This document shows positions 4,216 to 55,413 of a stretch of DNA of 64,000 bases, one piece after another (positions within the stretch are counted from its first letter, which is position 1; every line of letters starts with the position of its first letter). Under the pieces are notes generated by a model that saw only the letters and a list, made by a program, of their open reading frames with translations, was not told where the DNA came from and searched no databases. The DNA comes from Squalus acanthias (lineage: Eukaryota): contig CM059431.1 of the NCBI GenBank assembly GCA_030390025.1, positions 94,924,001 to 94,988,000 on the forward strand. The letters run 5' to 3'. Position numbers and translations under genes: made by a program.

Positions 4216-4223
4216 ATGAATAG
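4216..4223 (+). CDS. Candidate first coding exon (ATG AAT AG) of CD80/CD86-like gene
   Basis: aagcATGAATAG|GTGAGA has A at -3, a good donor and a phase-2 end. It joins the phase-2 start of exon 5242-5294 to give M-N-R-S-E-R-L. A similar ATGAATAG|GTGAC at 3964-3971 is an alternative. Confidence 0.45.
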
Positions 4224-4237
4224 GTGAGAATTTTTGA

Positions 4238-4259
4238 TTCACTTTCGAGTTTCACTTCT
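4238..4259 (-). promoter_or_regulatory. Possible tandem IRF/ISRE-like motifs just inside the putative first intron
   Basis: Minus strand reads AGAAGTGAAACTCGAAAGTGAA (GAAANNGAA-type repeats). Motif match only. Confidence 0.2.
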
Positions 4260-4819
4260 ATGACTTTGTAGACTGTAAAAAATAACAATTTACTGTTCTA
4301 TGAACTTAAGCATAATTTATTTCATTTTTCTCACATCTGTAAAGGAATGGTAAGTCAATTAAAAAAATTAGAGTGAATATACCCTCATTCTAAAATTGTT
4401 TATTGTAATGAACCACAACTGACCTGATCCTGCCTCTGTCTAGATCAGCTGGCATGCTAAGCATTACAGGGCCCCTGTGGCATCTGTCACTGTGTTACAC
4501 ACTGCCTGAAACTGCAGAAGAGGAGCTGCAATCTAATCAGCCTGCACTGGGCAGCCTGACTTGTTACTCCTCTTGAAATGATATTTTTAGAAATTGGGAG
4601 GTTAGTAGTGGTACTATCACAATGTTAACAATCTTACCACCAACACAAAAAGGCAAAGGCTTCTTTAAATTAAATGTCTCCCTGCATTCCAATGAGCAGA
4701 AGTTTTATGTCAGTGCTTAAGGGATATGAAGATGTTAGTCTTGCCTCTTTAAATCAGTAAATTTGTACAAATATAGTTATGAAGAAAGACTTGCAAAATT
4801 GGTGGTTTTAGTATGGGAG

Positions 4820-5185
4820 TAGAGAAGATTAAGGGAGGACCTAATAAAGATTTTCCAAATTATGAAATGTTTGACAGGGAAGATAGTGAAAAATTGACAA
4901 ATCGGTAGGATTATCATTAGAAGAATGAAGGTGGAAGTTAGAAGCGAACTTTTCACACAGAGGGTTATTAGACCACAAGGGGATATTGAGGCAGAGACTA
5001 TAACATCATTTAAAAGGGAATTGGATAATTATTTGAAATTTGAAAAGGACGAATGTGAAAGGATATGGGAAAAGGGTAGAAATAGAAGTAGAGTAGACAG
5101 CTCCATTTGTAGAGTTAGCAATGGCACAGGTACGATGAGCCGAATGGCCTCCATCTGTGCTGTAAATTCTTTGCTAAAATTCTAA
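4820..5185 (+). mobile_element. Old CR1 3' fragment
   Basis: LFTQRV...AETITSFKRELDNYL and a CR1-type 3' UTR. Confidence 0.7.
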
Positions 5186-5241
5186 AGATCATAAGCATAT
5201 AGATTTTTAAAAACTTATTTTTTGTTATTTTTCAACTCTAG

Positions 5242-5294
5242 GTCTGAGAGATTGGCACTGGTTGCAACCCTAGTATTCAGCATTCTAAAGCACG
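5242..5294 (+). CDS. Signal-peptide (leader) exon of B7-family CD80/CD86-like gene
   Basis: Polypyrimidine tract tttgttatttttcaactctAG, then 53 nt, then GTAAGT. Encodes SERLALVATLVFSILKH, phase 2 to phase 1. Splices in frame to the IgV exon and completes a signal peptide ending VLA-AG. Confidence 0.75.
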
Positions 5295-6062
5295 GTAAGT
5301 GCAGAATTTTTATGGGATAGATTTCCGTGTTCACTGCTTGGGCAGAGTGGATCGCCCACTCATTATACAACCCACTTGTTTTCATTTCCAATGGAAAAGA
5401 ACATTGGGTGGGTTCTATAAAAAGAGGAAAATCCCACCAGATTACTGGCCAAGTAGTGAACATGGAAATCTATCTCTCCAACCTAGTTATGCCTGTGATG
5501 TTCTGACTATAATGTTGAGATCAAACATTGTCACCATGACCATATGGTCATGCTAATGAATGCCATAAAAACCTTACCTTTGTAGACAAACTTTAGAGTT
5601 CCTGGCACAAGTCTGCTGCAGTGTAAGTGCTTTTCCCACCTTTTATACTGGTATATTTCTGACGCTTTGGGAGTGTTGTTCCCATGTGTGGTAATTGGGA
5701 GCAGCTTTCTGCAAACATTCCAACATTCCCCTCTTCCCAAACACCAGCAGCATGAGACTATGACCCAGGCTGGGAGTGGAGATGCATTGGCAGGCATATC
5801 CGAATGAAACTTTATAAACCAAAGCAATTATTTCATACACATACACCCAGTGCGTACCCCAACACATACACTGGTTCTGAAATGAAAGTAACAGAATGCT
5901 ACATTGTTCAAGTGTTTTAAAATTTCTCTGCCCATGTTCCCCTTCTCTTTCTCCCCCCCCCACCCCCCTTCCCATGAAGGTATTGACATCCTGTTGGACT
6001 ATAATTCTACATTTACTGATAATCGTCTAGTATCTCTTGCAAATTGCCATGCTGTCAGACAT

Positions 6063-7195
6063 GATTCAGTGATAGTGCCTTGAGTCAGTTGGTCGTGGGT
6101 TCAAGCCCCTCTCCAGAGACTTGAGTATGTAATCTAATCTGAGACTTCAAGGCAGCACTGAGGGAATCACTGGACTGTTGGAGGTGCCATCTTTCAGATG
6201 AGGTGTTAAACTGAAGCCCTGTCTGCCTTCTCAGGTGGACATAAAAGATATTGCCGCACTATTTGAGGAGCTGGACAGTTCTCTTTGGGGGAAAAATTAG
6301 GTTGATTTGCACCTAAGAGGGCGCTAACGGGGCGCAAATCAACTAGCGCCTGGGCGCGGTGCCGCTAACGCCTCCTGTGAAATTCAGCGGGAGGTTAGCG
6401 GCGGCGATAACCGTTAGTGCCCCATGGTGCTGCGCCGCCGGCGATGACATCATAGCCATGCCCAGTGCCCCGCTCGCGCCCCGGCCGTGATCTCCGGTAG
6501 CGCCACCTGACTTACTACCGGACGCTATGTCCAACAGAGTCAAGGGGGCCTAACTGCGGCCGGGACGGCGTAAATTAAAGGCGAGGTGCCGGGCGGCCAT
6601 TTTTGTTGCTGGCTGCCTGCCAGCACCTGCCCCCGTTGCTGTCCCCGATCTCCTGTGAAGCCCCCCCCGGGGTGCCGGCTGCGCTCTGTGAGCCCGGCAC
6701 TCCTCTTGAGTCTTTGCTCTTTTGCCGGCACTCCGATCCCTGGTGGCCCAGCGGGGCCCCGGGTCATGCTGCGCCAGGCCCCTCCCCTTTAATAAGGGGC
6801 GGAAGGCCTGCAGTACCGCGGTGCGACATGCCGCAGAGCGTGGCACTGCTGCACGTAATGCCGTGATATTCACTCACAGCACCCCAAGAGGGAGGTGGGG
6901 CGCTTCCAGTAGCGCCCTGCCTCCCTCTTGGGGCATGACCAGTGAATTTTAGCGTCCCGGCGAAATTAGCGCCCCGAAGGGGGCACGACCCAATTTTGCC
7001 CCCTTAGTGTCTTGGTCAACATTTATCCCTTAACTACTCCTATTAACACAGATTATCTGGTCTCTTATCTCATTACTGTTTGTGGAACCTTGCTGTGAAT
7101 AAATTGCTGCGTTTGCCTTCGCTACTATTCAAAACTATTTATTGGCTGTGAAGTGCTTCGGGACATCCCGAGGATATGAAAGGCGCTTTATATTC
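6063..7195 (+). mobile_element. tRNA-headed Deu-domain SINE (SacSINE1/AmnSINE1-like), split by MITE 6287-7003
   Basis: B-box gggttcaagccc; ggaggtgccatctttcagatgag...ctcaggtggacataaaagat. Resumes at 7004 with gtgtcttggtcaacatttatccct...aaaggcgctttata. Confidence 0.8.
6287..7003. mobile_element. GC-rich Harbinger-type MITE (family M1)
   Basis: TIRs GGGGGAAAAATTAGG / CCCAATTTTGCCCCC; 3-bp TSD ttt/tta; interrupts a SINE. Confidence 0.8.
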
Positions 7196-7984
7196 TTGCT
7201 ATGGCTTATATGTTAGCCTTCATAGTGACTGACAGAAGCTTTTCAACAGCTTGCGAATAGTCAATGAAACAGTTAATATCTAATATTTATTAGGGAATTT
7301 CCCTAACAGGCGGTGTTCATCTTTCTGATCCTCTTTTATATGTAGGACCTCTCCATATTTTTAATCTGTTCTCAACACAATAGCCTTAAACTAGTTTCAT
7401 CAAAAATCCACCCACTGCTCCCCTCCAGCCCACAGCTTTACAGAGCCTTGAGAAGCAGACTCAACGCAATGGGCTTCTTAGCTTCATCAACGGCCTGAAG
7501 GAGGTCATTAAAAGTGATATTGCTCTTTTTACTGATGACACCATTCTCTGCCCCATCTGACAGGCAAGTGCCGACCGAGTCACTGTAAGTAGATACAAAC
7601 AGAATTCAATAGTGAGAGGGTAAATGATGTTACACTTAGTACAGGGAATGTAAAGTCAATATTCTGATGAGAAAGATATGCATAAGAATGCCTTACTAAC
7701 TTTATAACCTAGAAATTGTGTAACTCCACCAGATGAAGTTTCAACTGTCAGAATTGGGTGCAGGCTCAGTGCGCCCAATTGCCGCAATTCTGATTTTCCC
7801 TCCATTAATTTAAACCTGGAGTGCCACAAATGATTGCGGAGGGTGAGGGTCCCAGGGTGGCAGTGTCCCAGATTATTTTTGTGGGCCACAGAGGAGCACT
7901 TTGGGCCCCACAAAAATAATTCCAAACTTAAAGGAGGTGGACCTCTTTTCCTCTATCGCCTGTGGCACTGATCTAAGAGTGCAC

Positions 7985-8374
7985 TCGATTTCAAAATTCT
8001 CATCCTTGTTTTCAAATCCCTCCATGTCCTCACCCCTCCCTATCTCTGTAATCTCCTTCAGCCCCACAACCCCCCGAGATATCTGCGCTCCTCTAATTCT
8101 GCCCTCTTGAGCATCCCTGATTATAATCGCTCAACCTTTGGTGGCCGTGCCTTCTGTTGCCTAGGCCCTAAGCTCTGGAATTCCCTGCCTAAACCTGTCC
8201 GCCTCGCTACCTCTCTTTCCTTCTTTAAGACTCTCCTTAAAACCTACCTCTTTGACCAAGCTTTTGGTCACCTGCCCTAATTTCTCCTTATGTGGATCGG
8301 TGTAAAATTTGTTGCCTTGGGACGTTTTACTACATTAAAGACGTTATATAAATACAAGTTGTTGTTGTTGTTGT
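7985..8374 (+). mobile_element. L2 LINE 3' end
   Basis: ttcaaaattctcatccttg...ggtggccgtgccttc...ctctggaattccctgcc...ttaaaacctacctctttga, ending in a (ttg)n tail. Confidence 0.8.
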
Positions 8375-8524
8375 CGCACGGATCATGTTCCGAACAGTTC
8401 CAACCTAAAATGGCAATCAGCGTCCTAGGACTTTGATTTGCATATTAAAAGGGGCCTACCAACTGAAACAAGCAGGCACTTTGGGCACCCAGTGGTAGGC
8501 CCATTTCAAAATCTTAGAATCATA

Positions 8525-9417
8525 GGGGGAGAAATTCGGTATCGCCCTGTTTGGGGCGCAATTATCGGCCGGGCGCAAAGATTAGCGCCTGGCACTAATT
8601 ATTGCCACCGACTGCAAACTTGACTTTTATCGCCCCTGGAGGTGATTGGAGCGCTAAATCAGGTGCTTCACACCTGTCCTAAGGCGCAAAGGCCGAGGAG
8701 CGAGGCGCTACCTCAGAGCGCTGGCGAAGCTCATGTAATGTCAGTCAGCAATGGAACACACACACAATGGCACGGGCCAGTTCTTAAAGGGGATGGTTAA
8801 TCTCACTTTCCATCCACATCCTGCTAATTGCAGCCTTGAATCTCGGCCTGGAGAGACCTGCACATCAAATCTGCGGGAAAGAACAATGGTGAGTACCAGG
8901 GAAAAAGCTCAGAGTGCAGCCCCCACAGTCTCTTTTAAATCGATACAAGGAATGGCAAATCAAAATGAACCTGCAAAGTGCTGCTCAGTACCCAAAACTC
9001 CTTCACTCAACGTTGAAACTCTCCAGAAGTCTCTCTCTCTCTCTCTCTGAATGCGTAGTTCAAAAATGGCACCAACGATAAAAGGCAGGAAGCGGTCACC
9101 TTTAAATAGCGCTCCCCCTTTCCCTTCATGACTGCAGAACGCTCCACTCAAACTGTCGTTGCTAGCGTCAGGCGGTAAGGCAGGGGGCGCCACTCAATAT
9201 CCGCTCCGGGGCGCTACCGGGGTGTTGCGCACTCGACTGACGTCACGATCTGCCGGCGCAGGAGATCGTGGCAGTAGTGTTTAGCGCCGCCGCAAAATGT
9301 CTAGTTAATTTGGCGAGCGGCGCAAACATCGCCGCGCCTGGGCGCTAGATGCTTTGCGCCCCATTAGCGCCCTCTTAAGGCACTAACGGGAGGCGCAACC
9401 AACTGAATTTTTCCCCC
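8525..9417. mobile_element. GC-rich Harbinger-type MITE (family M2)
   Basis: TIRs GGGGGAGAAATTC / GAATTTTTCCCCC; perfect ATA TSD; inserted in a CR1 agaatcata tail that continues 9418-9540. Confidence 0.85.
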
Positions 9418-11139
9418 ATAGAATCTTACAGCACAGAAGGAGACAATTTGACCCATTGTGCCTGTGCTGGCTTTTTGAAAGAGCTGTCCAATTCGTCCCA
9501 CTCCCATGCTGTTTCCCAATAACCCTGCAAATTTTTCCTTGGTGCCGGCCACATTATGTTGGTTATAAGGTAACCGACCCCATTTTGAGGCCGTTACCGC
9601 CCCATTAAAGTCAGGCGTAACAAGTGAAAATCGGCCTCATTGAGTGAAAATCCATACCACCAGTGGAGTTTTGCAATTTCAGGGCTCATGGGATCACTCA
9701 CAAATATTGGATCCTTGGCATCTGATCCATAGTGAGGCAAATAAATGGTGAACATGACTGGTGAAAGTATTCGGCAACTCTGGTGTTCACATCCACCCTG
9801 CAGTAATCTTGTTTGGCTGGCTGCAAAATGAAAACCATTTCTTCCTACTGGACACTGTGCCAACTAAAGTTACTTCTTTGGGACAGGGACCTAAGATTTC
9901 CATGACCCGCCCAATTTTCTTCTTCTGTTGAGCTTCTTCTGCATCCTTTACTCCCTTCCATTGCACCCCAGGCCCAAGGAAATGCCGGGCTACTGTTTAT
10001 TCTTCCATGATCCAAAGACTAGAAGAGTACAAGAGGGCTCCTGTCAATTGCAGAAAGCTATTAAAGTAACAAAGGTTTTCAATCGCTGTGCACTCCAGTT
10101 GATGAGGATCAAGGCTTTGCTTACGGCGGGGGTTAGGGGGGGTTGTCCTTTGGCACTGTGTATGAAAGAAATATCTGAGTAAAGCCTGAAAACATAACCA
10201 GGGCTTTGATCATTATCCACTGATACCTGCAGAAAGTGCAAACGCCAAGTGAGAGCTTGGCTGTGATGTCCAAATAATCTGACTCGGCTCAAACATGAAG
10301 AGTGAGTGGGGTACTGGAGGGCAGCTGGTGCCTTTCAAACCCAGGAAGGAGCAAACACTTTTGGAAGGAGAAGGAAGGAAAGGGAAAACTAGGAGGAAAA
10401 GAAAAGATTTCTGAAATAAATTTTACAAAATCTATACAGAATTTCAGTGTCAATGTTTTACACACTGTATATGAAGCTAAAGGGCTGATTTCCCAATTGA
10501 GCACTCCCAATGCTCACAGAGAGTACTTGTCGGGAAATCATCAGCTCACAGTGCCAAATGTTCTGTCCATTTAAATTAATGGTTCCTAACCAGCGCTTCC
10601 TGTGGGCAGTGTTCCAGTCCTGGAACACTCAATCAAGGAATCAGCCCTAATATCAGCGCTGTCACTTGGAACTCTTATCTCTTGTATGCAGAAGTTTAGT
10701 TGAGGCAGAGCTGTTGCAGGGTGTATTAATCTATTTGAAATCTTTGACTTTCCGTTAGTATCTCTGCACTATCTCTCTTAGCAGACGATTTTCTGTTGTC
10801 TCAGAAACTGTCAGCGACATTCATGAGACAGCTGTTGGTGGCTGCAACCGATTGTTTTTTATAGCTTAACAAACCGGAACCCAAACCACCTCGAACCCAC
10901 TGACTTCCGGTTTTAACAGAGACAGGACAGGTCCAGGCAACCAACCCACTCCAGGAGGCAGGTCACTCATTTAAATATTTTAATGAGCCTCAGATTTTAC
11001 TTCCATTTTAAATTTTACGCCGGCCGGCCCAAACCTGCCCACTTTTGGGGGTAAAAATTCCCCCCAGCATTTGGATTATGAAGGAGATTATCCAGAATTC
11101 CCAGGAGTGATGGTGTTGATATGGACAGTGGCCGTTGCC

Positions 11140-11400
11140 TCATGTAATGAAAACAGGCACCATGACATCAATATGTTAATACCCATATACTGTCTGTTAG
11201 AGCACGTGGGACCACATAGAAAAAGAGGAACAGCCAATTACAGGTGATTCATCCTTCAAATAACCCCTGGACATTCCCAGTAATGCTTACATACCAAAGA
11301 AGGATGAGACAGTTCTGTGCGGATTACAGAAAATCAAATGACCTAATGGTAATAGATGTGTACCCTATAACTCGTACCAAGAAGATCCTCATAAAACTAA
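11140..11400 (+). mobile_element. Highly degenerate Gypsy LTR-retrotransposon RT fragment
   Basis: Frameshifted VIHPSNNPWTFPV...PKKDE..FCADYRK.NDLMVIDVYPITR resembles Gypsy PS.SPWASPV.LVPKKDG.R.CVDYRKLN..T..DAYPLPR. Confidence 0.65.
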
Positions 11401-11561
11401 TCCGCAGACTCTAACAAGTGTGTGTTCATTATCATGTTATTAGTTTACTCTCTGAAAAGTCCAGTTACTGATCCAGCCAGCTGTTAGCTCCCTTTGATAG
11501 TCTGCTCACCTTCTCAAGTTACCATTGCAGTGATGTTGCTTTGTGGGAGATGCGGGTAATT

Positions 11562-13333
11562 GGGCTGCGATTTTACTAACCTCTGCGGGTCCGGGGCGGG
11601 CAACATCAGTGGCGGGTCCCGACCCCACTGCCGTCTCCATCCCGGCCTCTGAAATTAATTTCTCTTGATTGGGCTTGTCCGTCCAGCGCATTTGCCGGCC
11701 AATTAGAGGAAGCGGGTCTGGTGATGTAATTTTATGACACGTCATTAGCCGGTTTCCTTAAAGGGACCATGGCCAACTTTATTTTCACATTTGTGCTGTC
11801 AGTGTTCTACAGCATTGAGGTGCTGCTAACACTGACAAGCACTGCACAGAGGTGCAGGGCTGCACCCAGGCTCTTCCATGACTCCCTCCAATGCTTATGG
11901 AGGGAGTCACAGCACGCAGGGAGGTCCTCTTCCCTTCCCATGGGCGGAAAAGACCTCCCCAGAAGATCAACACAGCCTGGTTGCACATTGCAGAGGAGGA
12001 CACAAGCAGGGATGTGATCAGGAGGACCTGGCAGCAGTGCCTCAAACGTTTCAATGATTTCAGTAGATCACGAAACGTTAGTACAAAGTCACACTCAATC
12101 TCATCCTGCTGTGCCTCTCATCACATCTCCATCACTCTGCCTTCCCTACCATACTCCTGCACATTCTTACTCACACCAACTTACCTTGCACCTTCACCCA
12201 TCCCTCTCTATCTGCATTATCACTTTCCCATCTCACTAGCCACCCCTCACACTCATCCTAGTACAATCATACCAACTAACAACACACAAGGGTAGGCACT
12301 TGGCTGGTTTATGCAATGTTCATGTGAAGTTTCTGTTAATGTGCTGTCAAACATTGAAACCTTTATTTTCAACACTTTGCGTTCTTGGACAGATTTGTGT
12401 GCACCTTTGGAAGTGGCTTAGTGAGTTGCCGTGAATGGTGAGACATAAGGGTACCCCCCGCAATGGGGATGAGTATGAAAGGAATGGCTTGGGCATTGTA
12501 GGGATACTTTATGGTATTAGTGTGGGGTGGTGCCAACCTGGCGCATCATGTGGCAGCCAGGATGTACAGCACCAAGTGAAGTAAATCTGACCATGGTGAG
12601 GCCATCCCTGGCCTCCCAGACAGCAATGTGCTCGGGTGCTGATGCCCTCTGTCCTGTGCAACATCAGGTGATTACGGAGAAGGTTGGTGTTGTTGTTGGT
12701 GCTGCTGGTGTGCCTGGTGCTGCTGGTGTTGGGGCTGATCGTGGTGGGATTCTGAAGACCAAGGTGAGAGAGTATAAACAGCACCCATGCTGATGGAATA
12801 GATGGCAGGTGAAGTAGAGATGACAGAAGCGATCTGTCAATGGTGAAAGAGATAATGAGGTCAGACTGGATGGAGATTTGTGTAAAGATTTGCAGTATGG
12901 TGAATCTGTTGTGGAAATGCAGTGAGGAAGAGTTTGTGGCTGAGGGAAAATATCTCTGTAAGGTGGGAGCTTTTACTGTATATTTGAATTTGTCAACTCA
13001 TCAGCTGATTCAATGGCCACTGAACCCCCGCCTCAGCTTGACAGACATGGTCCACGACCAGCGTGGACCCCGTGGGCGAGCTGTCAAATGCAGAAGGTGA
13101 GCTGAAATTCATTCTTAAGTGGCTCTAAACAAGCCACTAATTACCTGAATTGTGTCCCCCGCTGTGAACCCGCCGCTGTGTGTCGGGTCTGCTCAGAGCT
13201 CACACACCCAATATCGGGGAAAGGCGCGTGGCGGTGGGTTCACAGCAGGGTCCTGACCCGCTGGGGGAAAAAAACACTTTCCCACCTGACCCGCCACTGA
13301 TCAAGCCCGCTGACCCCCCGCAAAATCCAGCCC
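11562..13333 (+). mobile_element. Non-autonomous Harbinger, 1.77 kb internally deleted derivative (copy 1)
   Basis: Ends GGGCTGCGATTTT / AAAATCCAGCCC. Retains the Myb exon 1 relic (11820-12080) and only the transposase termini. Colinear with 45871-47641. Confidence 0.85.
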
Positions 13334-13410
13334 TTGGTGTGTGCACGGATCGGATTCTGCTTTGAAACTTTCAAAATTTCAAAGCAAGGCCACATGCCTT
13401 CTCTGAGCTC

Positions 13411-13619
13411 GATGCGGAGATGCCGGTGTTGGACTGGGGTGGACAAAAATGAGAAGTCGCACAACACCAGGTTATAGTCCAACAGTTTTATTTGAAATTA
13501 CGAGCTTTCGGAGCTCTGCTTTCGGAGCACTGTACCTGACGAAGGAGCAGAGCTCCGAAAGCTCGTAATTTCAAATAAAACTGTTGGACTATAACCTGGT
13601 GTTGTGCGACTTCTCATTT
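13411..13619. mobile_element. Penelope-derived fold-back insert (family P2)
   Basis: Perfect 76-bp inverted repeat 13445-13520/13546-13621; 12-bp TSD ttctctgagctc (13399-13410/13620-13631). Confidence 0.85.
13533..13567 (+). ncRNA. Minimal type I hammerhead ribozyme motif (Penelope type)
   Basis: TAC-CTGACGA-A-GGAGC-AGA-GCTCC-GAAA-GC-TC-GTA: intact core, 5-bp stem II, palindromic AGCT stem III, stem I TAC/GTA. Confidence 0.75.
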
Positions 13620-14165
13620 TTCTCTGAGCTCATTCGCTCTATTTTTATCACCATGCTCAATGATTCAAGGAGGAGCCTTACAGCCAGAGTGCCACCTGCT
13701 GTCTGCACTGCCGGCAAGCTGTTCAAACTGCACAGGTCATGCACATCCACTAAAAGCTTTCATCTGGGAACTTCTCTTGCAAGTGATTGTGCACTAGCGG
13801 GTTGATTTTCCGCCTCTGTGTTTCTGGAAGGTGCCTCTCTAACTGGCTGCACATATCGGAAACTCAGGTGTGCAATTCGTATGATTTTCCAACCATTTAA
13901 AGTAATGGGCAGGAAATCCTGTGCAGCAGCAAAGAGATCTCTGATACACATTACCATGCGAGTGAGGCTCCCTGCAAGCAGTACAAAGTCAGAAAACTAC
14001 CCCAAAAAGGTGTACACTCCAGAAGACTAAGGGTGCATTTTTACTGGAGCCAGAAGTTTGTGATTGGCAGCTACAGAATCAGTTCCAGCCAGGCAGCACC
14101 TCTTTTATACTTCCCAGCTCCTGTCTGGCTCCAATTCGTGGCTTCTAATGGCCAGGACAGTGCTT

Positions 14166-14830
14166 CATAGAATCATAGAATCATAGAAAGTTACAGCACG
14201 GAAGGAGGCCATTTCGGCCCAGCGTGTCCGTGCCGGCCAACAAAGAGCTATCCAGCCTAATCCCACTTCCCAGCTCTTGGTCCGTAGCCCTGCAGGTTAC
14301 AGCATTCCAAGTGCACATCCAGTACTTTTTAAATGTGGTTAGGGTTCCTGCCTCTACCACCCTTTCAGGCAGTGAGTTCCAGACCCCCACAACCCTCTGG
14401 GTGAAGAGATTTCCCCTCAAATCCCCTCTAAACCTTCCCCCAGTTACTTTAAATCTGTGGCCCCTGGTTTTTGACCCCTCTGCGAAGGGAAATAGGTCCT
14501 TTCTATCCACTTTATCTGGGCCCCTCATAATTTTATACACCTCAATAAGGTCTCCCCTCAGCCTCCTCTGATCCAAGGAAAACAGACCCAGCCTATCCAG
14601 TCTTTCCTCATAGCAAAGATTCTCTACTCCCGGCAACATCCTTGTAAATCTCCTCTTTACCCTCTCGAGTGCAATCACATCTTTCCTGTAATGTGGTGAC
14701 CAGAACTGCACGCAGTACTCTAGCTGAGGCCTAACTAGTGTTTTATACAATTGAAGCATAACCCCCTGCTCTTGTATTCAATGCCACGGCTAATAAAGGC
14801 AAGCATTCCGTATGCCTTCTTAACCACCTA
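14166..14830 (-). mobile_element. CR1 LINE 3' end (catagaat-tail family)
   Basis: ORF 14181-14759 LYKTLVRPQLEYCVQFWSPHY...FTQRVVGVWNSLP; (catagaat)n tail. Confidence 0.95.
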
Positions 14831-15384
14831 TACCCATATGGAGAGCTTGGCTCCTAGTGGTTACTTTTTAAATCTTCTGGAGTCAGGTCTGGAATTATAC
14901 TGTCACTATTACAATGCAAAATTAACAATATAACTGCACCATAAGATGGTAATTAGATCAATGAGAGTTGCTAGGCTGCAGTGAAAAGTTATTAAGAAAG
15001 CATTCACCTCAGAAAAAATATTCATGAATTTTTACAAAAGCATGCTCCTGATGTGGAGCCTCACCTATTGGGAGTACAGATTAGGAAATAATGGGTGTGA
15101 TCCCCAAGACTTTTGATCCACTGATTTCAATGAACAGAAATTCATATGGAATGTACCTGTGATTTCCTCATATGTGCTCACGGGGGCTGAGGCTCCACTC
15201 CAGAAGTGCACATTCATAGCTATAACCTTTATATTTCATCCTTAGCCATCAATAATGAGGTGGAGCTGAACCCCACACCTTAGTTCTCCTATCTGCGAAG
15301 TCTTTCTTTAACAGTGTGCTTATGGATCAATAATTACAAGCATGCATCAAGACGGTGTGTTGAATGTATGGGCTTCTACATGAG

Positions 15385-21108: not shown

Positions 21109-21291
21109 AATGATTTGAATTAGGTCGCCCGCCTCTACCAGTCAGGTCGCTGCCGCACCGGCAAACATGCCCGAGGGAAAGGCGCGTGGGGGCAGGATGA
21201 CGGCGGGTTCCCGACCCGCTGCAACTTATTTCAAATTTCCCACCCGACCTGCCTCCGATTGCGCCCGCATGGACCCCAGAAAATTCCGGAC

Positions 21292-24528: not shown

Positions 24529-24599
24529 GAGGATTCTAAGTTAAGTATCTAAAAATCTAATATTTAGGTTCTTTATGTTTAGTATTTCAATGGTTCTTG

Positions 24600-42972: not shown

Positions 42973-43106
42973 ATTCTGATGAACGGTGATCGAGCTGAAA
43001 CGTTAACACTGTTTCTCTTTCCACAGATGCTGCCTGACCTGCTGAGTATTTTCAGCGTTTTCTGTTTTTATTTCAGATTTCCAGCATCCGCAGTATTTTG
43101 CTTTTG
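42973..43106 (+). mobile_element. Penelope-derived fragment (family P1) with hammerhead core but degenerate stem II
   Basis: TTCTGATGAACGGTGATCGAGCTGAAACGTTAAC followed by the same tail as 1553-1650. Confidence 0.75.
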
Positions 43107-45200: not shown

Positions 45201-45589
45201 TTCCCTGTACTTTCCTCCTAGTTTTCTAGGACATTGTAACTGTGTTCATAAGAAAAAAATGTATAAATAAAGCAATGAGACTGTTTCTCTGGATCTCATA
45301 TTTGAATGGAAAAAGTGACGTTCAAATATATTCAATAGAATTTCATATTATTTGCTTTTTCTCTTGTTGCGATTCTCTTTCCTTGTCTGCTTTATTTTTT
45401 TGTAGTCTCTTTGCTTCTCTGTTTCTCCCTGTCTTTCTCTGCTTGTCATTCTCACCCTGTGGTTTGCTCCCCACACAATTCTTTTTGTTTCTTATTGCAC
45501 TGTTTTCAGTCTGCACTGTTGACTGCTCTGGCCTTGATGACCCTGGCCCCATCACAATTATTTTTGCTGCACACCTTCACATCATGCCA

Positions 45590-48520
45590 GATGAAAGGTT
45601 GTTACACAAGATAAGGGTTCATAGGGTTGGGGGTAATATATTAGCATGGATAGAGGATTGGTTAAAGGACAGAAAACAGAGAGTAGGAATAAACAAGTCA
45701 TTTCCAGGTTGGCAGGCTGTTACTGGTGGGATACCGCAAGGATCAGTGCTGGGGCCTCAGCCATTTACAATCTATATTAATGACTTAGATGAAGGGACCA
45801 AGTATAATGTATCCAAGTTTACTGACGATACAAAGCTAGGTGGGAAAGTAAGCTGTGAGGAGGACACTAAGGTCGTGATTTCCCCTACCTCGGTGGGTCT
45901 GGTGTGGCCGGGGTCGGTGGCGGGTCCCAACCTCGCTGCTGGCTCCAGCCCGCTGTCCAAAGTGATTTTACGTTGATTGGGCTTGTTAAGCCCTCCCAGC
46001 GTGTTTGCCGGCCAATTGAAGAAAGCGGGTCTGATGATGTCACTTGACGCGTCATCAGCCGATTTCTTTAAAGGGACCATGCGCAAATTTATTTTGATAG
46101 TTGTGCTGTCAGTGTTCTACAGCATTGAGGTGCTGCAAACACTGACAAGCACTGCACACAGGTGCACTGCTGCACCCAGGCTGTCCCATGACTCCCTCCA
46201 TATGCTTATGGAGGGAGTCACAGCACGCAGGGAGGTTCTCTTCCTTTCACATGGACGGAAGAGACCTCCCCAGGAGACCAACACAGCCTGGTTGCACATT
46301 GCACAGGAGGACACAAGCAGGGATGTCGTTAGGAGGACCAGGCTGCAATAGCGCAAACCTTTGAATGATTTCAGTAGATCACGAAACGTTACTGCAAAGC
46401 CACACTCAACCTCATCCTGCTGTGCCACTCATCACATCCCCATCACTCTGCCTTCCCTAACCTACTCCTGCACATCCTTACTCACACCAACTTACCTTGC
46501 ACCTCCACCCATCCCCCTCTATCTACATTATCACTTCCCCATCTCACTAGCCATCCCTCACACTCACCCTCATCCTAGTGCAAGCTTACCAACTAACAAC
46601 ACACAGGCACGTGTGTGTTTTAGCCAATGTTCATGTGAAGTTTCTGTTAATGTGCTGTCAAACATTGAAACCTTTATTTTCAACACTTTGCGTTCTTGGA
46701 CAGATTTGTGTGCACCTTTGGAAGTACCTTCGTGAGTTGCCGTGAATGGTGAGACATTACGGTACCCCACCCCGCAATGATGATGAGTGTGAAAGGAATG
46801 GCTTGGGCATTGTAGGGATACTTTATGGTATTAGTGTGGGGTGGTGCCAAACTGGCGCATCATGTGGCAGCCAGGATGTACAGCACCAAGTGAAGTAAAT
46901 CTGGCTATGGTGAGGCTATTCCTGGCCTCCCGGGCAGCAATGTGCTCGGGTGCTGATTCCCTGTGTCCTATGCAGCATCAGTTGATTGCGGAGAAGGTTG
47001 GTGTTGTTCTTGGTGCTGCTGGTGTGCCTAGTGCTGCTGGTGTTGGGGCTGATCGTGGTGGGATTCTGAGGACCAAGGTGAAATAGTTTCAAGGGCACCG
47101 ATGCTGATGTAATAGATGGCAGGTGAACTTGAGATGACAGAAGCGATCTGTCAATGGTGAGAGAGGTTGTTCCAATGAGGTGACACTGGATAGAGAATTT
47201 ACTCCAAACACTTGCAACCTGCATAAAGGTCAATCTGTCTTCCAAATGCAGTAAGCAACAGCTTCTGAGCTTGGAAAGTGAACAGCTGTGAGATGGGAGC
47301 TTTTATAGCACATTTGCAGCTGTCAAGTAAAGAGATGATTTCATGCTAACACAACTCCTGACCTGCTTACCTGACGTGATCCCTAAGCAGCGTGAAACCT
47401 GTGGGCGACCTCGTAAAATTTAAAGGTGAGCTCAAAATAGTGGCTGTTAACAATCTCTTAATCACCTAAATTGCCTCCCCCGCCGCTTGGTGTCGGGTCT
47501 GTTCAGCGATGACAGACCCGACAACTGTGAAACTAGCGTGGTGGCGGGTTGACAGCGGGTTCCCTACCCACTGTCAAAAAAAAAGTTTCCCTCCTGACTC
47601 GCCACCAAACATGCCCGCTGACCCCCCAGAAAATTTCCCCCAAAGTGTCTGCAAAGGGATATAGACAGGTTAAGTGAATGGGCAAGAAGTTGGCAAATGA
47701 AATATAATGTGGTGAAATGTGAAGTTATTCACTTTGGTAGGAAGAATAGAAAAACAGAATATTTTTTAAATGGTGAGAAACTATTAAATGTTGGTGTTCA
47801 GAGGGATTTGGGTGTCCTTGTACATGAAACACAGAAATTTAGCATGCAAGTACAGCAAGCAATTAGGAAGGCAAATGTATGTTGGCCTTTATTGCAAGGG
47901 GGTTAGAGGATAAGAGAAAGGAAGTCTTGCTGCAATTTTACAGGGCTTGGAGTACTGGAGTACTTGGAGTACTGTGCACAATTTTCAGCTCCGTACCTAT
48001 GGAAGGATATACTTGCCTTAGAGGGGCTGCAACGAAGATTCACTAGATTGATTCCTGGAATGAGAGGACTGTCCTACGAGGAGAGATTGAGTAGAATGGG
48101 CCTATACTCTCTGGAGTTTAGAAGTATGAGAAGTGATCTCATTGAATCATGTAAGATTCTGAGGAGGATTGACAGGGTAGATGCTGAGAGGTTGTTTCCC
48201 CTGGCTGGAGAGTCTAGAGCTAGGGGGCATAGTCTCGGGATAAGGGGTCGGCCATTTAAGACTGAGATGAGGAGAAATTTCTTCACTCAGAGGGTTGTGA
48301 ATCTTTGGAATTCTCTACCCCAGAGGGCTGTGCATGCTGAGTCTTTGAGTATATGCAATGCAGAGATTGATAGATTTATGGTCTCTAAGGGAATCAAGGG
48401 ATATGGAGATCGGGCGGGAAGTGGAGTTGAGGTCGAAGATCTGCCACAATCTTATTGTATGGCTGAGCAGGCTCAAGAGGCCGTATGGAGCACTCCTACT
48501 CCTATTTCTTATGTTCTTAT
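45590..48520 (+). mobile_element. CR1 RT/3' fragment split by Harbinger 45871-47641
   Basis: IPQGSVLGPQ...KFTDDTK..VSCEEDT|...LQRDIDRL; tail ttcttatgttcttatg. Confidence 0.9.
45871..47641 (+). mobile_element. Non-autonomous Harbinger, 1.77 kb (copy 2)
   Basis: Colinear with 11562-13333; TSD taa/aaa inside a palindromic GACAC-nnn-GTGTC target. Confidence 0.88.
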
Positions 48521-50760
48521 GCCAACGGAGTTGAAGATTGGACCGTATGCATAGAGAAAAAAGAAACTGTGGTATCCTGCAGCCACGATGGCAGCAGTCT
48601 GAGCTTGCATGGCAGCAAGCTAAGCTTGCATGACAGAAGTCTGAGGAGCTCACCAAGGATGTCCTCACTGAAATCTGCCACCTGCTGCAGCCACAACTGC
48701 AAACTCAGGGCAGGACAAGGAACACATTGCCAGTGGCTGGAGCAGGAGATATATGCAACATCTCCCAGTTTTCAATCCACTGTTGCATAGTAACTGAGGC
48801 TCTGTATTCCAAGAGAGCTGAATACATTTCATTCACTCTGGCCCGAGAGCAGCAGGTGGGGCGGGCACACGGCTTCACGAGGATTGTAGGTTTCCCCATG
48901 GTACAGGGTGCCATTGACTGCACGCGCGTCGCTTTGTGGGCGCCACATGTAAACCCTGAGATGTGCCACAACCAAAAGGGATTCCACTCCCTCAATGTGC
49001 AGCTGGTGTGCGGCCATACTCAGTGAATCATGCAGGTGAATGCCGGTATCCTGGCAGCAGTCATGATGCCTTCATTCTGCGGTAGTCTGCTGTGCCATCT
49101 GCATTTGAGCCACCACGACAAACCAGAGGGTGGCTACTGGGCGACAAGGGCTATCCATTAACACCATGGCTCATGACTCCAGTGCACAACCCATGCACAC
49201 ATGGTCAGCATTCATACAATGATAGCCATGTTGCCTCACAAAATATCATTGGGCAGACCATTGGCATGCTGAAGTAACGCTTCCGCTGCCTGGACTGCTC
49301 TGGAGGAGCCCGGCAGTACTTGGCAGAGCAGGTGTCGAGATTCATGGTAGTCTCCTGCATGCTGCACAACCTTGCCACCATGAGGGCAAAGCCCTTGACA
49401 ACAGCTATATAGTGACCAACTGAGAAGCAGGAAGAGGAGGAAGTGGTGGAAGAGGAGAAGGAAGAGGAGGAGGAGGAAGAAGAAGGGAGTAGGCAACTTA
49501 GACAGCCGCTTTCTGGACGGGCTATCCGTGACCAACTCACCCGGCTGCGATACCGGTAAATGCAACCCCAATTCCCCATTCCCCAACAGTCCCACACCTT
49601 ACCATCCCTCTGTCACTGACCATCACAGCGTCTGCTTGGCCACCATGCAAAAATAAAAGCCAACACAAAATAAATTCCAGAACAAAGTTATAAATCAAAC
49701 AATGTCATATTGCATACAAGCATCAACAGATCACCCTTGTACATTCCCTTAGTGCCTGCCTTCTGTGTGCCTTTGCCTGTCCTAGTGCCCCTACACAGTG
49801 CTACCCCAGTGGCTACAGCATGGCTGGTGGAAGGCTGCTGACTTTCAGTGGGGGAGACTGCAGATGGTCTTGGAGAACGACCTTGAGCAGCTCTGGGCCT
49901 AGAAGGCCCAGCTTTGGACTGCATCATCTCTTCATGGGTGGCAGCAGTCTGTGCTGGCAGGCTGACAGGCAACAGCAAGGGCACTGGCGGAGTGGCAGGG
50001 GTGGGAGGATGAATGCTGTCCTCCTGAGAGAGGGCAGCAGGTTCATCCTCCACGGTGCCACAACCACTCACCTGGGGCAGCGCCTCAGCAATCCTGGTAA
50101 TCTGTTGGAGGACAGATTGCTGGACTGCTGTGACAACCTGCAAGCCCCTTTGAACCGTGGTATCTGCAGCCACAGAGGCAGCAGTCTGAGCTTGAGTGGC
50201 AGCAAGCTGAGCTTACATGGCAGAAGTCTGAGCTTCCACAGCATCACCCAGACATTGGCTGGCTTCTGCTTGTGCTACAATGGAAGCTGAGACATTGTCC
50301 ATCAGACGCTGCATCATGGTTGGGTCCACAGGTTTGCTAATGGAGTTGGCCACCACTTCCATGCTGGAAAGGATGGACTCCCAGCTCTGTGCAAAGCCCT
50401 TTGCCAAGTTGGTGCTGGACTCCTCCATGCTCCTTGACATTCATGGCCTTCTTCCGTAGCCCGTCCCATCGAAGTGCTCATCTGAGTCCTCTAAAGCAGA
50501 ACTCATGCATGACCTCACCCTCCAGTGAGCTGGCACCTGCAATACCCTTGTCCCCTGCCCTGGCTGCAGGTCACTCATACCCGATGTCTCATTACGTGCA
50601 GATCTCGCCTCTAAGCTATCCTTTAAATTATGCGCAGTGTCAGTATATGAGCTGGTGGCTGCGAGTGTGAAATCGAGTGACGGTGCTGTCTTCATCATCA
50701 CTACCTTCTTCCTCTTCCACCTGTTGCTCTTCCACCACTGCCTGGCCATGGGGATGGGGG
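48520..50760. mobile_element. Degenerate Harbinger family B: transposase (+, ~48650-49558) and Myb 3' exons (-)
   Basis: DICNISQ..IH...[41 protein letters not shown]; acidic tail; convergent ORFs 49688-50173 and 50213-50440. Confidence 0.85.
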
Positions 50761-51721
50761 AAAGTAAGAGGTGCATGCTTACACCATCTGCAGCTTGTAA
50801 ATCAATGCAGATCTGTTTCACATTCCTAGTTTTGTTCCTCCTGCGCAAAGGAAGGAAAAATGGATGACAGACATACTCTATGAAATAGCTAAGGGTGAAG
50901 TTAAAAGAGACAAAGGAGATTTGATGTTCAACATGTCCAACCAATGCATAGCAGCAATCAACAAAACCAATGGAATGTTGAGCTACACAGAGCCCACACA
51001 GTGGAACACGGGTCAGCGGAGGTAATGAACAAACTGTAAAGTGTTCTGGTCTGAGTGCCGTCCCCATGGCTTATAGAAGTGCGATCGTGCAAACACGATT
51101 TGCCCCTTATACGCGATGGCCAGGATAACATGGTAGCGCTTTAGTTGCTTGTATTTCAGGTTTTGTAGGCATTAATATAATATATAAATAGGACAGCAGT
51201 CCAAATAAAATTATTACTATTGGTTAAATCCGAGGGGTAATCTTCTGCTTAGATCGTAAACGGCAGTTTCAGGTCACCCTCACAGCCTGAAGATATAGAG
51301 AGCACCATCCCTTTAAAGTAGTGTTTCTTTAAATACAAGATATAAAGATACCAGGAATGCAGTTGAGAATTCAGATTAATCATGAGTCCTCTCCACCCCC
51401 ACCCCCTCCCCCACCCCCAAGTGATTTGTTATTAAATGGAGATGATAGAAGTAAACAGAGTGTAAAATACAAGCAACACTGCCTGAAACTGACAGTGAAG
51501 CGATCCATAGGTCACTGCTCTGATGCACCCGTTTCCAAACTGGACCTCCAGGGTCATCAAGTTTCTGTATTGCTTCATTACTTGTTGCCTGACTAGCACA
51601 TTACTTCCATTGCTATTTATTAATGAAATGAGAGCACTGTTTTCCTTTGGGTGGCTGACTGTGTCTTTCTGAAGTTAGGACAGGGGGCTCCTGGGAATGT
51701 GTCAATCTTTGCAATGTGTAC

Positions 51722-53670
51722 TTATAGAATCATGGAATGACACAGCACAGAAAGAGGCCATTCAGCCCATCGTGCCTGTGCTGACTCTTTGAAAGAACTA
51801 TCCAATTAGGCCCACTCCCCTGCCCTTTCGCCATAATGTAACACCCCTATTTAAGAAAGGAGGGAGACAGAAAGTAGGAAACTATAGACCAGTTAGCCTA
51901 ACATCTGTCATTGGGAAAATGCTGGAGTCCTTCATTAAGGAAGCAGTAGTAGGGCATTTGGAAAATCATAATGCAGTCAAGCAGAGTCAGCATGGTTTTA
52001 TGAAAGGGAAATCATGTTTAACAAATTTGCTGGAGTTCTTTGAGGATGTAACGAGCAGGGTGGATAAGGGTGAGCCAGTGGATGTGGTGTATTTGGATTT
52101 CCAGAAGACATTCGATAAGGTGCCACATAAAAGGTTACTGCATAAGATAAGAGCTCACGGAGTTCGGGGGTAATATATTAGCATGGATAGAGAATTGGCT
52201 AACTAACAGAAAGCAGAGAGTCGGGATAAATGGGTCATTTTCCAGTTGGCAAACGGTAACTAGTGGCGTGACACAGGGATCGGTGCTGGGGCCTCAACTA
52301 TGTACAATCTACATTAATGACTTTGATGAAGGGACCGAGTGTAATGTAGCCAAGTTTGTGGATGATACAAAGATGGGTGGGAAAGCAAGTTGTGCAGAGG
52401 ACTCAAAGAATCTGCAAAGGGATATAGACAGGCTAAGTGAGTGGGCAAACATTTGGCAGATGGGGTATAATGTGGGAAAGTGCGAGGTTATTCACTTTGG
52501 CAGCAAAAATAAAAAAGCAAATTATTATTTAAATGGAGAGAGATTACAAAATGCTACAGTTCAGAGGGACCTGGGGGTGCTTGTGCATGAAACACAAAAA
52601 GTTAGCGTGCAGGTGCAGCAAGTAATCAAAAAGGCAACTGGAATGTTGGCCTTTATTGCAAGGGGGTTGGAGTACAAAAGCAGGGAAGTCCTGCTACAAC
52701 TGTACAGGGTATTGGTGAGACCACACCTTGAGTACTGCGTACAGTTTTGGTCTCCTTATTTAAGGAAGGATATACTTGCATTGGAGGCAGTTCAGAGACG
52801 ATTCACACGGTTGATTCCTGAGATGAGGGGATTGACTTATGAAGAAAGGTTGAGCAGGTTGGGCCTATACTCATTGGAATTTAGAAGAATGAGAGGTGAT
52901 CTTATTGAAACATATAAGATACTGAGGGGGCTCGACAAGGTAGATGCAGAGAGGATGTTTCCCCTCGTGGGGAAATCTAGAACTCGGGGGCATAGTTTCA
53001 GAATAAAGGGTCGCCCTTTTCGAACTGAGATGAGGAGGAATTTCTTCTCTCAGAGGGTTGTAAATCTGTGGAATTCTCTGCCCCAGAGAGCCGTGGAGAC
53101 TGGGTCATTAAATACATTTAAGGTGGAGATAGATTTTTACAAGATAAGGGAGTGAAGGGTTATGGGGAGCGGGCAGGGAAGTGGCTTTGAGCCCAAGATC
53201 AGCCACGATCTTATTGAATGGCGGAGCAGGCTCGAGGGGCCAAGTGGCTATTCTTGCTCCTATTTCTTATGTTCTTATGTTCTTATAACCCTGCACATTT
53301 TTTCCCCTTCAATTATTTATCCAATTCCCTTTTGAAAGTTACCATTGAATCTGCTTCCACCACCCTTTCAGGCAGTGCTTTCCAGATCAGAACAACTCGC
53401 TGTGTAAAAAACAATTCTCCTCATCTTGCCTCTGGTTCTTTTGCCAATTACTTTAAATCTGTGTCCTTTGGTTACTGACCCTTCTGCCACTGGAAACAGT
53501 TTCTCCTTATTTACTCAATCAAAACCCTTCATGATTTTGAACACCTCTATCAAATCTCCCCTTACCCTTCTTGCTGAATGAAAAGCAACCCCAGCTTCTC
53601 TAGTCTCTCCATGTAACTGAAGTCCCTGGTACCATTCTCGGCACCCTCTCTAAGGCCTTGACATCCTTCC
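51722..53670 (-). mobile_element. CR1 3' end (minus) split by a plus-strand CR1 at 51836-53285
   Basis: atagaatcat tail at 51724; resumes at ~53286 with ataaccctgc; ataa duplicated at the junctions. Confidence 0.8.
51836..53285 (+). mobile_element. 5'-truncated CR1 (RT + 3' tail)
   Basis: ORFs 51919-52173 and 52268-53155; (ttcttatg)n tail. Confidence 0.95.
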
Positions 53671-54436
53671 TCTATTCCTATGATGCTCAGAATCCATCCA
53701 TTCATACACAGCCCAAAATAAACATAGCACTTAAGACGCTATAACTGGTAACTTTGAAATTGAGGTTAATGTAAATGGCTAATGCTTATCACTTTTTGAC
53801 CTATATAAGTGGCTGCCCATTTTAAACCTGGATGTTTTAAGTGGAGGGAACTATTGTGTCGATTCCAAGAAACAAGAACAGCATTCAAGCACTGGAGGCA
53901 ATACAGAGAAGAGCCATAAGCTGATTTTTTTTCGAGGTTAATTAGTATGGAAAGTGTAAATTCAGAAAATGGCTTTAATCTAAATTATAAGAGTAAGTCA
54001 AGGGGAAACACGTTCAAACAATAAAAAGGTAAATTTAGGACTGAAGTTCTTTTCACACAGAGAGTGATCACCGCATGGAATGGCTCCCTAATGGAGCAGT
54101 GGAGGTGAAAACCCTGGAATCATTTAACAAGCAATTAGATGTTGCAATGGAAGGGTTCGTTCGGGTCATTCTGGATGAACAATCTCAGATTGGCTGAATG
54201 GCCTTCATTATCTAGTGATCCTATTCTTGCACTGCCAAAAAAAAGTCAGCCACAGAGGAACACATATAGCAACTCCTATATTCAGAATTTAGATTATAGC
54301 AATCAAATCTATAACTTTAAGAACTTTCTGAAAGGCCAGAACATCACTGGTCTTTATCGTTCATTTTATAAGGGAGAGCTGGGTGCAAGACGATCAGGAA
54401 ATTTCATGAGCGCTCATTTCCATCTCATAGGCGTCA

Positions 54437-54785
54437 ACTGTGGCTCAGTGGTAGCACGCTTGCCTCTGAGTCAAAAAGTCATTGAGTCAAAAGGTCATTG
54501 ACACTTCAGTGCAGTAATGAGGGAGTGCTCGTCGGAGGTGCCATCTTTTGGATGAGATGTTAAACCAAGGCCCTTTTGCCTACCTGGTGTAACCAATATT
54601 TACTCCTCAGCCAACATCACTCAAACAGATTATCTGGTCATTATCTAATTGCTGTTAGGGGGACCTGGCTGTGCACATACATACAACAGTAACTGTACTT
54701 TATTACAGTACTTCATTGGTTGTAAAGCACTTTGGGGCCTCCTGAGGTTGTGAAAGGTGCTATATAAATGCAAGTTCTTTCTTTA
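54437..54785 (+). mobile_element. Deu-domain SINE
   Basis: tgtggctcagtggtagcac A-box; ggaggtgccatcttttggatgagatgttaaacc; ends aaaggtgctatataaatgcaagttctttc. Confidence 0.8.
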
Positions 54786-55071
54786 CTACCATAAAATTTC
54801 CCATTGAAATGATGCTCTTGCACATCTTGGGTAAGATAACTTTAGACCGAATAATGCTGTTGGTTGGAAAATGTTCCCTGTGGTGACTTAACCAAAACTG
54901 ATCCAATTCGGGACAACTTAGGTTTGGAATTCAGTTTTACACTCAGTTCCATTGTATTATAATATAAAAGCATGAGATAGTTCAAAATTAGTAAAGGCCA
55001 TTTTTAATATTTAGGCTCATTTTCCTTTTGCTGTGTTCTTCTTAAGCTCTTATTTGTATTTTTTTCCATAG

Positions 55072-55413
55072 TGTTGGCTGCTGGTTGGTCAGTTCCAGCA
55101 GTACCTGGGACATCAGTGGACCTACCGTGCCGTTTTACAGCGAACAAAGGTGACAATACCAATCATCTCCGTGTAACCATGCAGATGTCCAAGCCACTCA
55201 AAGTCGTCCATTCATTTCATTCTGGAAAGGATGACCTAGCACTTCAGGATTCTCAGTATAAAAATAGGACCAAATTTGTGTTGCCCAGATTTGTTGTCCA
55301 GCTCTCCAAAGTCTCAATCTCTGATGACGGACAGTATGAATGCATCATTCAAGTGAGAAGAGGAGACGAATACACAAAATATCATTCCTTTAAATTTCAT
55401 CTAGAACTTGTAG
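55072..55413 (+). CDS. IgV-domain exon of B7-family costimulatory ligand (CD80/CD86-like)
   Basis: ttttttccatAG acceptor and GTAAGT donor; 342 nt, phase 1-1, open frame. Motifs DLPC...VHSFHSGKDDLALQDSQYKNRT...L.KV..SDDGQYEC. The segment from RTKF to LELV aligns without gaps to the CD86 V-domain C-terminal half as I recall it. Confidence 0.9.

Follow-up and report, generated by a model that had tools for sequence, protein, structure and literature searches.

A split leader some 50 kb from a CD86-like IgV exon in a single-copy B7-family gene of the shark Squalus acanthias, a candidate CD80/CD86 counterpart

Introduction

A 2026 survey describes the conservation of CD80 and CD86 as poor beyond the amniotes and suggests that different molecules may do their work in other vertebrates (PMC13262535). 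On the receptor side, the CD28 family of the cartilaginous fishes was catalogued in 2024 with the ligands left open, and that work describes a three-gene cassette of the CD28/CTLA4 type in Chondrichthyes, together with several extra CD28-family receptors whose ligands are unknown (Quiniou et al., 2024; PMC11599192). Our search of the accessible literature found no description of a chondrichthyan CD80/86. Here, we analyze a stretch of 64,000 nucleotides from the 3.7-Gb genome of Squalus acanthias (hereafter, the shark), which spans C7:94,924,001-94,988,000, where C7 is the contig of this window, and which appears to hold the 5' half of a B7-family gene with an IgV domain of the CD86 kind. The gene is already modelled in the elephant shark, Callorhinchus milii, as isoforms X1 and X2 (XP_007890001.1 and XP_007890004.1), which carry the NCBI name "CD276 antigen homolog"; what is added here is the shark gene and the CD86-type reading of its IgV.

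A sequence-only reading of the window had joined three short exons into a CD80/CD86-like gene whose split leader lies about 50 kb from its IgV exon. It took the product to be a candidate ligand of CD28/CTLA4, a better match to CD80/CD86 than to B7-H3 or HHLA2, ascribed to CD86 and ICOSLG a leader split by a phase-2 intron, supposed that automated annotation could miss the 5' end, and looked to RNA junctions, downstream exons, phylogeny and synteny as checks. The analysis reported below follows up these proposals.

Results

Structure and orthology of the gene

The three exons proposed by the sequence-only reading, with their canonical splice sites and their phases, were confirmed by reading the forward strand (Table 1), and the phases fit in series, with 2 after exon 1, 1 after exon 2 and 1 after exon 3. 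The 5' untranslated region of exon 1 runs upstream of 4216, an A occupies position -3 of the ATG, and the donor GTGAGA follows immediately after 4223. Exon 2 is bordered by a pyrimidine-rich tract and AG on its 5' side and by a GTAAGT donor on its 3' side, and exon 3 by a long T-rich tract (...TTTTTCCATAG) with AG upstream and by GTAAGT downstream. Exon 3 encodes a V-set Ig domain of 113 residues (Pfam V-set, E = 6.3e-8, 33.2 bits for a cut-off of 26).

Table 1. Coordinates of the gene, of the adjacent connexin gene and of the candidate receptor exons. Plain numbers are window positions.
Feature	Position	Strand	Description
Exon 1, coding part	4216..4223	+	ATGAATAG, ATG and 5 bases: Met, Asn, two bases of Arg
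Intron 1	4224..5241	+	1,018 bases, phase 2; GT...AG ends; pyrimidine-rich tract before 5242
Exon 2	5242..5294	+	53 bases; SERLALVATLVFSILKH, hydrophobic core of the signal peptide; phase 1 at its 3' end
Intron 2	5295..55071	+	49,777 bases
Exon 3	55072..55413	+	342 bases; last signal-peptide residues and complete IgV; phase 1 at both ends
Intron 3, first 8.6 kb	55414..64000	+	continues past the window end
IgC exon	L010:3016-3312 = C7:95,001,016-95,001,312	+	13,016-13,312 bases past the window end; phase 1 at both ends
GJA8 (Cx50)-type connexin	L018:4641-5849 = C7:95,082,641-95,083,849	-	Pfam Connexin 1.3e-101, Connexin50 1.8e-22
CD28/CTLA4-like V exons	L036:1411-1758, L037:1474-1824, L038:1468-1827	+	F-G loops MYPPPY, IHPPPY, MHPPPY

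When the IgV was compared with 1.84 billion proteins by HMMER (256 matches), the best one-domain match was Callorhinchus XP_007890004.1 (84.5 bits, 49% identity), followed by single-domain matches of 40-47 bits from many B7 groups. In word-indexed protein searches, the shark IgV gave no match to longer proteins, and XP_007890001.1 and lungfish CD86 each found only their own cluster. Across the 230 aligned residues of leader, IgV and IgC, the shark model and XP_007890001.1 are 50.4% identical, and the two genes have in common the leader, split by a phase-2 intron in both, the exon joints and an extra pair of cysteines in the IgC. The IgC exon of the shark was located by tblastn with XP_007890001.1 (57.9% identity, 1e-29), 21.6 kb downstream of the IgV exon and outside the window; it matches Pfam C2-set_2 (1.3e-11) and C2-set_3 (4.8e-11), and the gene therefore has the architecture of the B7 family, an N-terminal V-set followed by a CD80-like C2-set in separate phase-1 exons. 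A search of the whole shark genome with XP_007890001.1 returned the IgC exon at 108.1 bits and the IgV exon at 91.1 bits; because the next match is far lower (41.1 bits), the gene is single-copy and the one-to-one orthologue of the elephant-shark gene. A frame of 494 residues elsewhere (C16:13,300,557-13,301,714, reverse strand) matches both V and C of XP_007890001.1 (27% identity, 41 bits) with no intron between them, and could represent a retrocopy or, unusually, a B7-like gene without introns.

Four sequencing runs were aligned to 54600-55900, of which X1 and X2 bear the label "RNA?", a guess, and X3 and X4 are genomic DNA of related organisms. In a 260-base contig of run X1, letters 149-260 equal 55071-55182 with zero mismatches, and the first 148 letters depart from the genome at this point. 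Base 55071 is a G, the same as the last base of exon 2, and the break in the contig is therefore the predicted acceptor. Thus, the junction expected by the sequence-only reading was seen from one side: the IgV acceptor at 55072 is used, and its partner would be exon 2, judging from the Callorhinchus leader. Run X2 contributed a 177-base contig lying entirely within exon 3 (55230-55406). The contigs of X3 and X4 cross both borders of exon 3 (54957-55608) with 18 differences; eight of these fall in exon 3 and seven of the eight are synonymous, from which it follows that exon 3 is protein-coding and under purifying selection.

We then asked whether the leader could have arisen by chance, such that the IgV exon would be real, both leader exons mere look-alikes, and the true first exon elsewhere. 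Ab initio, under rules of splicing and hydrophobicity, the leader is not unique: a loose scan upstream of 55072 gave three other one-exon leader candidates (at 22278, 29354 and 34090) and one other candidate resembling exon 2. The exon-1 word ATGNNNAGGTRAG has a single copy in the window, where 0.27 are expected and at least one was found in 23 of 100 shuffles, and when the Callorhinchus leader was used to scan approximately 55,500 positions of the window, the exon 2 peptide tied for the top score. These figures speak for chance, but the predicted leader is identical to that of XP_007890001.1 at seven of the first nine residues and at 10 of the first 20, the N-terminus of isoform X1 likewise reads Met-x-Arg-Ser-Glu, and the exon joints are placed alike, with an Arg across exons 1 and 2 and a Val across exons 2 and 3. 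Moreover, exon 1 lies 1 kb 5' of exon 2 on the correct strand and in the correct phase, and the alternative candidates are all unlike the two N-termini known from Callorhinchus. Because of the Callorhinchus comparison, the use of the acceptor at 55072 and the synonymous differences in the exon, we accept the leader as real; it is very likely part of the gene, a chance origin being quite improbable, and the IgV and IgC exons are certain. The split leader of a B7-family gene, about 50 kb from the IgV exon, is thus upheld.

The long intron 2 contains many open frames derived from reverse transcriptases of long interspersed nuclear elements, Harbinger-like elements and other repeats. Harbinger-like transposase frames are found at 19,059-20,024, 34,075-35,184 and 44,546-45,245, several CR1/L2-type reverse-transcriptase frames also occupy the intron, and the same repeat family is paired in opposite orientation, for example at 17,037-18,483 and 35,890-36,775 of the window.

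Likeness of the IgV domain to CD86

The alignment of the IgV with human CD86 covers residues 12-110 (99 residues) and reaches the G strand; it needs a single gap of one residue, which lies outside the D-E segment, whereas the alignments with CD276 and MOG require a 5-residue insertion and stop at about residue 93-95, before the G strand. The four features singled out by the sequence-only reading, namely YKNRT, the short D-E segment, CII after the F-strand Cys and the His before the G strand, are all present in the human CD86 alignment. The spacing from the Tyr of Y-x-x-R-T to the F-strand Cys is 29 in the shark, 29 in lungfish CD86 and 30 in Callorhinchus, as opposed to 34 in 301 of the 339 instances of the motif among the relatives of B7/BTN type that were compared; the 18 other instances with a spacing of 30 or less belong to very long or multi-domain proteins, to butyrophilin-like repeats of teleosts and to a few other teleost proteins. 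Three other B7-type V exons of the shark were read, and all have the long GNASL form. The shark IgV thus has the short D-E segment, free of the G-N-A-S-L insertion, that we would regard as a mark of CD80/86 as against other B7 and BTN domains.

The AlphaFold (AF2) model of the IgV, with a predicted local distance difference test score of 88.1, was built on an input alignment of three rows, lungfish CD86 included, and may lean toward CD86. Foldseek placed CD86 at ranks 1-3, with query TM-scores (TMq) of 0.89, 0.89 and 0.82, and CD80 at ranks 4-6 (0.78, 0.77 and 0.76); MOG and PD-L1 followed lower by E-value, with TMq of 0.73-0.79 at ranks 7-9 and 11-12. The best fold match superposes at 1.4 A. 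Compared with CD86 (1I85, 5YXK and 8HXB, and lungfish XP_043927884.1), the shark protein has the same IgV-IgC build, the same IgV length and the same loop spacing; it differs in that identity is about 25-33%, the IgC is not detectably nearer to CD86 than to other B7s, and the chromosomal neighbours are different. CD80 (4RWH, 1DR9 and 1I8L) is the second-best fold group (TMq 0.76-0.81 overall), but its sequence scores are below those of CD86, CD276, MOG and PD-L1, and nothing like ADPRH or POPDC2 lies near the shark gene.

Lungfish XP_043927884.1 is a true CD86, scoring 95.6 bits to human CD86 with CD276 and ICOSL as the next families. When the shark genome was searched with it, the top two matches were the present IgV (42 bits) and the present IgC (32.5 bits), and the next stood at 31.8. 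In the reverse direction, lungfish CD86 was found by the shark IgV at 43.3 bits amid a crowd of library proteins at 40-47 bits. Going by these comparisons of sequence and fold, the IgV is of the CD86/CD80 type, and among the genes of this genome the present one appears to be the strongest candidate ligand for receptors bearing the MYPPPY loop.

Several results weigh against this assignment, in addition to the possible lean of the fold model. In phmmer searches with the IgV, CD86 (36.8 bits) has no advantage over MOG (37.6), and both stand ahead of CD276 (31.1-31.7), VTCN1 (28), PD-L1 (25) and CD80 (24.4). For the IgC exon, the scores are 42 bits with CD276, 38.9 with ICOSL, 31 with PD-L1 and 24.1 with CD80, and CD86 does not appear among the best 60 matches. 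A protein-language look-up (Atlas) returned "ICOS ligand" clusters first (0.97), with CD80 and CD276-like clusters at 0.96, and generic V-set clusters only when the IgV was used alone. The phylogeny leans toward the sequence-only reading in that a maximum-likelihood tree of 30 rows makes lungfish CD86 the sister of the shark and Callorhinchus sequences, but its support is weak (68% bootstrap, 45% in the Shimodaira-Hasegawa-like approximate likelihood ratio test) and lungfish CD86 is its only CD80/86 sequence, with none from mammals, birds, frogs or teleosts. Finally, the downstream search brought the IgC but no membrane anchor: three scans of the shark DNA from the IgC exon to GJA8, each for a phase-1 acceptor followed by a hydrophobic stretch, brought up no counterpart of the transmembrane segment and short tail that the Callorhinchus protein carries. 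These scans gave 0, 1 and 3 candidates, none convincing; the one at L010:5600 was rejected for its T-rich, repeat-like surroundings.

CD276 and ICOS ligand as alternatives

The NCBI name of the orthologue implies that the gene is CD276 (B7-H3), and CD276 does give the top phmmer score both for XP_007890001.1 (47.7 bits, to the two-domain human chain) and for the IgC exon. CD276 (4I0K, 9LME) and ICOSL (6X4G) are V-C2 ligands of the B7 family too, and their IgC domains reach the highest sequence scores with that of the shark. However, two-domain CD276 chains are matched at 86.7-91.1 bits by a V exon on another contig (C502:~72.6 kb, L003:1477-1851, reverse strand), and at no more than 31.1-31.7 bits by the IgV studied here; the insertion required in the CD276 alignment also separates the two, and forcing the gene into the CD276-like clade, a clade named after the tree had been seen, costs 18.5 log-likelihood units (p = 0.035 in the approximately unbiased test). 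The shark gene shows neither the high conservation of CD276 nor its long-loop IgV, and we regard this identity as nearly excluded, which agrees with the preference of the sequence-only reading for CD80/CD86 over B7-H3. The exon on C502 (87-91 bits to human and mouse two-domain chains) is likely the true CD276 V exon of the shark, and its frame continues into a long run of Ser/Thr/Pro/Arg-rich repeats of about 10 residues. Since the true CD276 V exon lies elsewhere, "CD276 homolog" is a misleading database name for the elephant-shark orthologue.

A second alternative, that the gene is the ICOS ligand (B7-H2) of cartilaginous fishes, draws on the Atlas feature search, in which the first three clusters were "ICOS ligand" (0.97, 0.97 and 0.96), on the score of the IgC exon to human ICOSL, second after CD276, on XP_007890001.1 itself, which scores 39.2 bits to ICOSL versus 34 to CD80 and 33 to CD86, and on the split leader that the sequence-only reading ascribed to ICOSLG as well. 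ICOSL is, on the other hand, not among the best 60 PDB matches for the IgV exon, the top fold matches are CD86 and CD80, and the short D-to-F spacing is common to the gene and CD86, whereas the IgV of ICOSL and CD276 is of the long-loop form (seen in the alignment for CD276) and the shark has a separate CD276. As far as the available text of PMC11599192 describes them, the chondrichthyan receptors are without ICOS-type features. An ICOS ligand is in our judgement unlikely.

Candidate receptors and chromosomal neighbourhood

Receptors of the CD28/CTLA4 kind are encoded in the same genome, where three consecutive V exons (Pfam V-set_2) lie on the forward strand of C3 at 111.88, 112.07 and 112.15 Mb, matching the arrangement of the cassette reported in Chondrichthyes (Quiniou et al., 2024; PMC11599192). 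A CD28H-type V exon with an EIPPP loop was also seen (L035, C5:145,187,786-145,188,091, reverse strand), and 43 kb from it lies a long-loop B7 V exon (L034:744-1073, C5:145,144,5xx, reverse strand) with 69.7 bits to human VTCN1. The pair could represent a receptor gene located next to that of a B7 ligand, in the vicinity of genes of the POPDC and ILDR types.

The neighbours of the B7-family gene are other than those expected for CD80 or CD86. Downstream, on the opposite strand, lies an intact, single-exon connexin gene of the GJA8 type, at a distance of 82 kb from the IgC exon and of about 95 kb from the window end; a BCL9 domain is found at +0.55 Mb (C7:95.56 Mb), and contig C7 also carries a GPR89-type exon at 99.2 Mb. 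We take GJA8, BCL9 and GPR89 to lie together in human 1q21.1, and a listing in the literature agrees for GJA8, GJA5, BCL9 and ACP6; the shark gene sits in a block like human 1q21.1. The human neighbourhoods are presumably TIMMDC1-CD80-ADPRH-PLA1A-POPDC2 and ILDR1-CD86-CASR. In the shark, a POPDC-type exon (C5:142.0 Mb) and two LSR/ILDR-type exons (C5:143.8 Mb) are on a contig other than that of the gene, and ADP-ribosylhydrolase exons are on C3, C2339 and C498. Synteny with human CD80/CD86 is thus not conserved, a further point against the assignment; it bears on orthology, not on function.

Given these neighbours, the main rival is that the gene forms a B7 lineage of its own. This could be specific to chondrichthyans, or it could be an ancient paralogue of CD80/86 that cartilaginous fishes kept and that in bony vertebrates was lost or is unrecognised. 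Such a lineage would sit in the 1q21-type block and might serve CD28X, a CD28H-like receptor or another member of the CD28 family rather than the MYPPPY receptors. The neighbours GJA8, BCL9 and GPR89 are as this rival would have them, the sole close relative in the whole protein library is the Callorhinchus protein, with mixed B7 groups making up the rest, and the position in the tree is weakly resolved; extra CD28-family receptors without known ligands are also on record for chondrichthyans (PMC11599192). Yet the short D-to-F spacing is that of CD86, the top structural matches are CD86 and CD80, and lungfish CD86 has no better match in the shark genome. Moreover, a MYPPPY receptor must have some ligand, and the genome search, which scores the best candidates only, brought up no second V exon of the CD80/86 kind. 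We hold a separate lineage to be possible, if rather doubtful.

The hunt for neighbours covered 314 kb with 1,807 open frames of at least 60 residues, 619 of them without a look-alike in the region; of the 150 longest, 130 were scanned with Pfam, leaving aside five frames of G-rich repeat, two of tandem repeat, two Ig exons and 11 frames of the window, and a further 64 frames of 60-94 residues 5' of exon 1 were scanned as well. Apart from the connexin, the scans gave only an integrase of retroviral type and two matches that fell short of their cut-offs, and these Pfam scans of open frames found no neighbouring gene within 50 kb upstream. About 71 kb past the window end, a simple repeat of approximately 2.2 kb (L016:665-2958), G-rich/C-rich and open in five frames, yields pseudo-proteins rich in Gly/Trp or in Pro that reach 719 residues in length, a trap for programs that call open reading frames. 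A PTR2-type transporter lies farther along the contig (C7:101.9 Mb). On C16, a class-I alpha-mannosidase (Glyco_hydro_47) and a small cluster of B7/BTN-type V exons lie about 0.7 Mb apart (66.40-66.50 and 67.20-67.26 Mb), an arrangement that recalls what we take to be the human MAN1A2-VTCN1 pair.

Discussion

The window contains the 5' half of a B7-family gene of a cartilaginous fish, single-copy and transcribed, in which two tiny leader exons, of 8 coding bases and 53 bases, are presumably spliced over a 50-kb, repeat-filled intron to the IgV exon, with the IgC exon 21.6 kb farther on. We consider the product most likely to be a glycoprotein on the surface of antigen-presenting cells and the counterpart of CD80/CD86 in cartilaginous fishes. 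The gene could be an orthologue or co-orthologue of theirs, or else a sister gene that the bony vertebrates have lost. The IgV of the product would turn its GFCC' face toward the MYPPPY-type, proline-rich loop of the CD28/CTLA4-like receptors, whose exons lie on another contig. A cartilaginous-fish counterpart of CD80/CD86 is our best overall explanation, held with evenly balanced confidence; strict orthology with CD80/CD86 appears to us about equally probable either way.

The exon structure, the use of the IgV acceptor, the purifying selection, the one-to-one orthology with the elephant-shark gene and the CD86-like character of the IgV are observed; the cell type, the anchoring in the membrane, the binding of receptors and the orthology with CD80/CD86 are proposed. 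The sequence-only proposal of a CD28/CTLA4 ligand of the CD80/86 type accordingly stands in part, favoured by the IgV, its fold and the search with lungfish CD86, and disfavoured by the weak tree, the IgC and the synteny. Its expectation that automated annotation could miss the 5' end was half true, since the NCBI model of the elephant shark already includes the leader, albeit under the CD276 name.

The locus also serves as a worked example of a start codon placed in a coding stub of 8 bases, 51 kb from the first recognisable domain. The significance is mainly for comparative immunologists, for whom the CD276 label of the orthologue is shown to mislead. Tentatively, and with some doubt, we suggest that sharks and chimaeras may present to their MYPPPY receptors a CD86-like ligand encoded beside GJA8 and BCL9, with its gene located in a 1q21-type block instead of the surroundings that CD80/CD86 have in tetrapods. 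If so, the ancestral home of CD80/86 would be the 1q21-type block and the tetrapod site would be secondary; or else a sister B7 gene, dating from the early genome duplications and lost in bony vertebrates, would be co-stimulatory in the cartilaginous fishes. With a gene common to shark and chimaera that has a CD86-type IgV, and with the coordinates of three receptor exons, B7-1/2 co-stimulation in sharks becomes directly testable.

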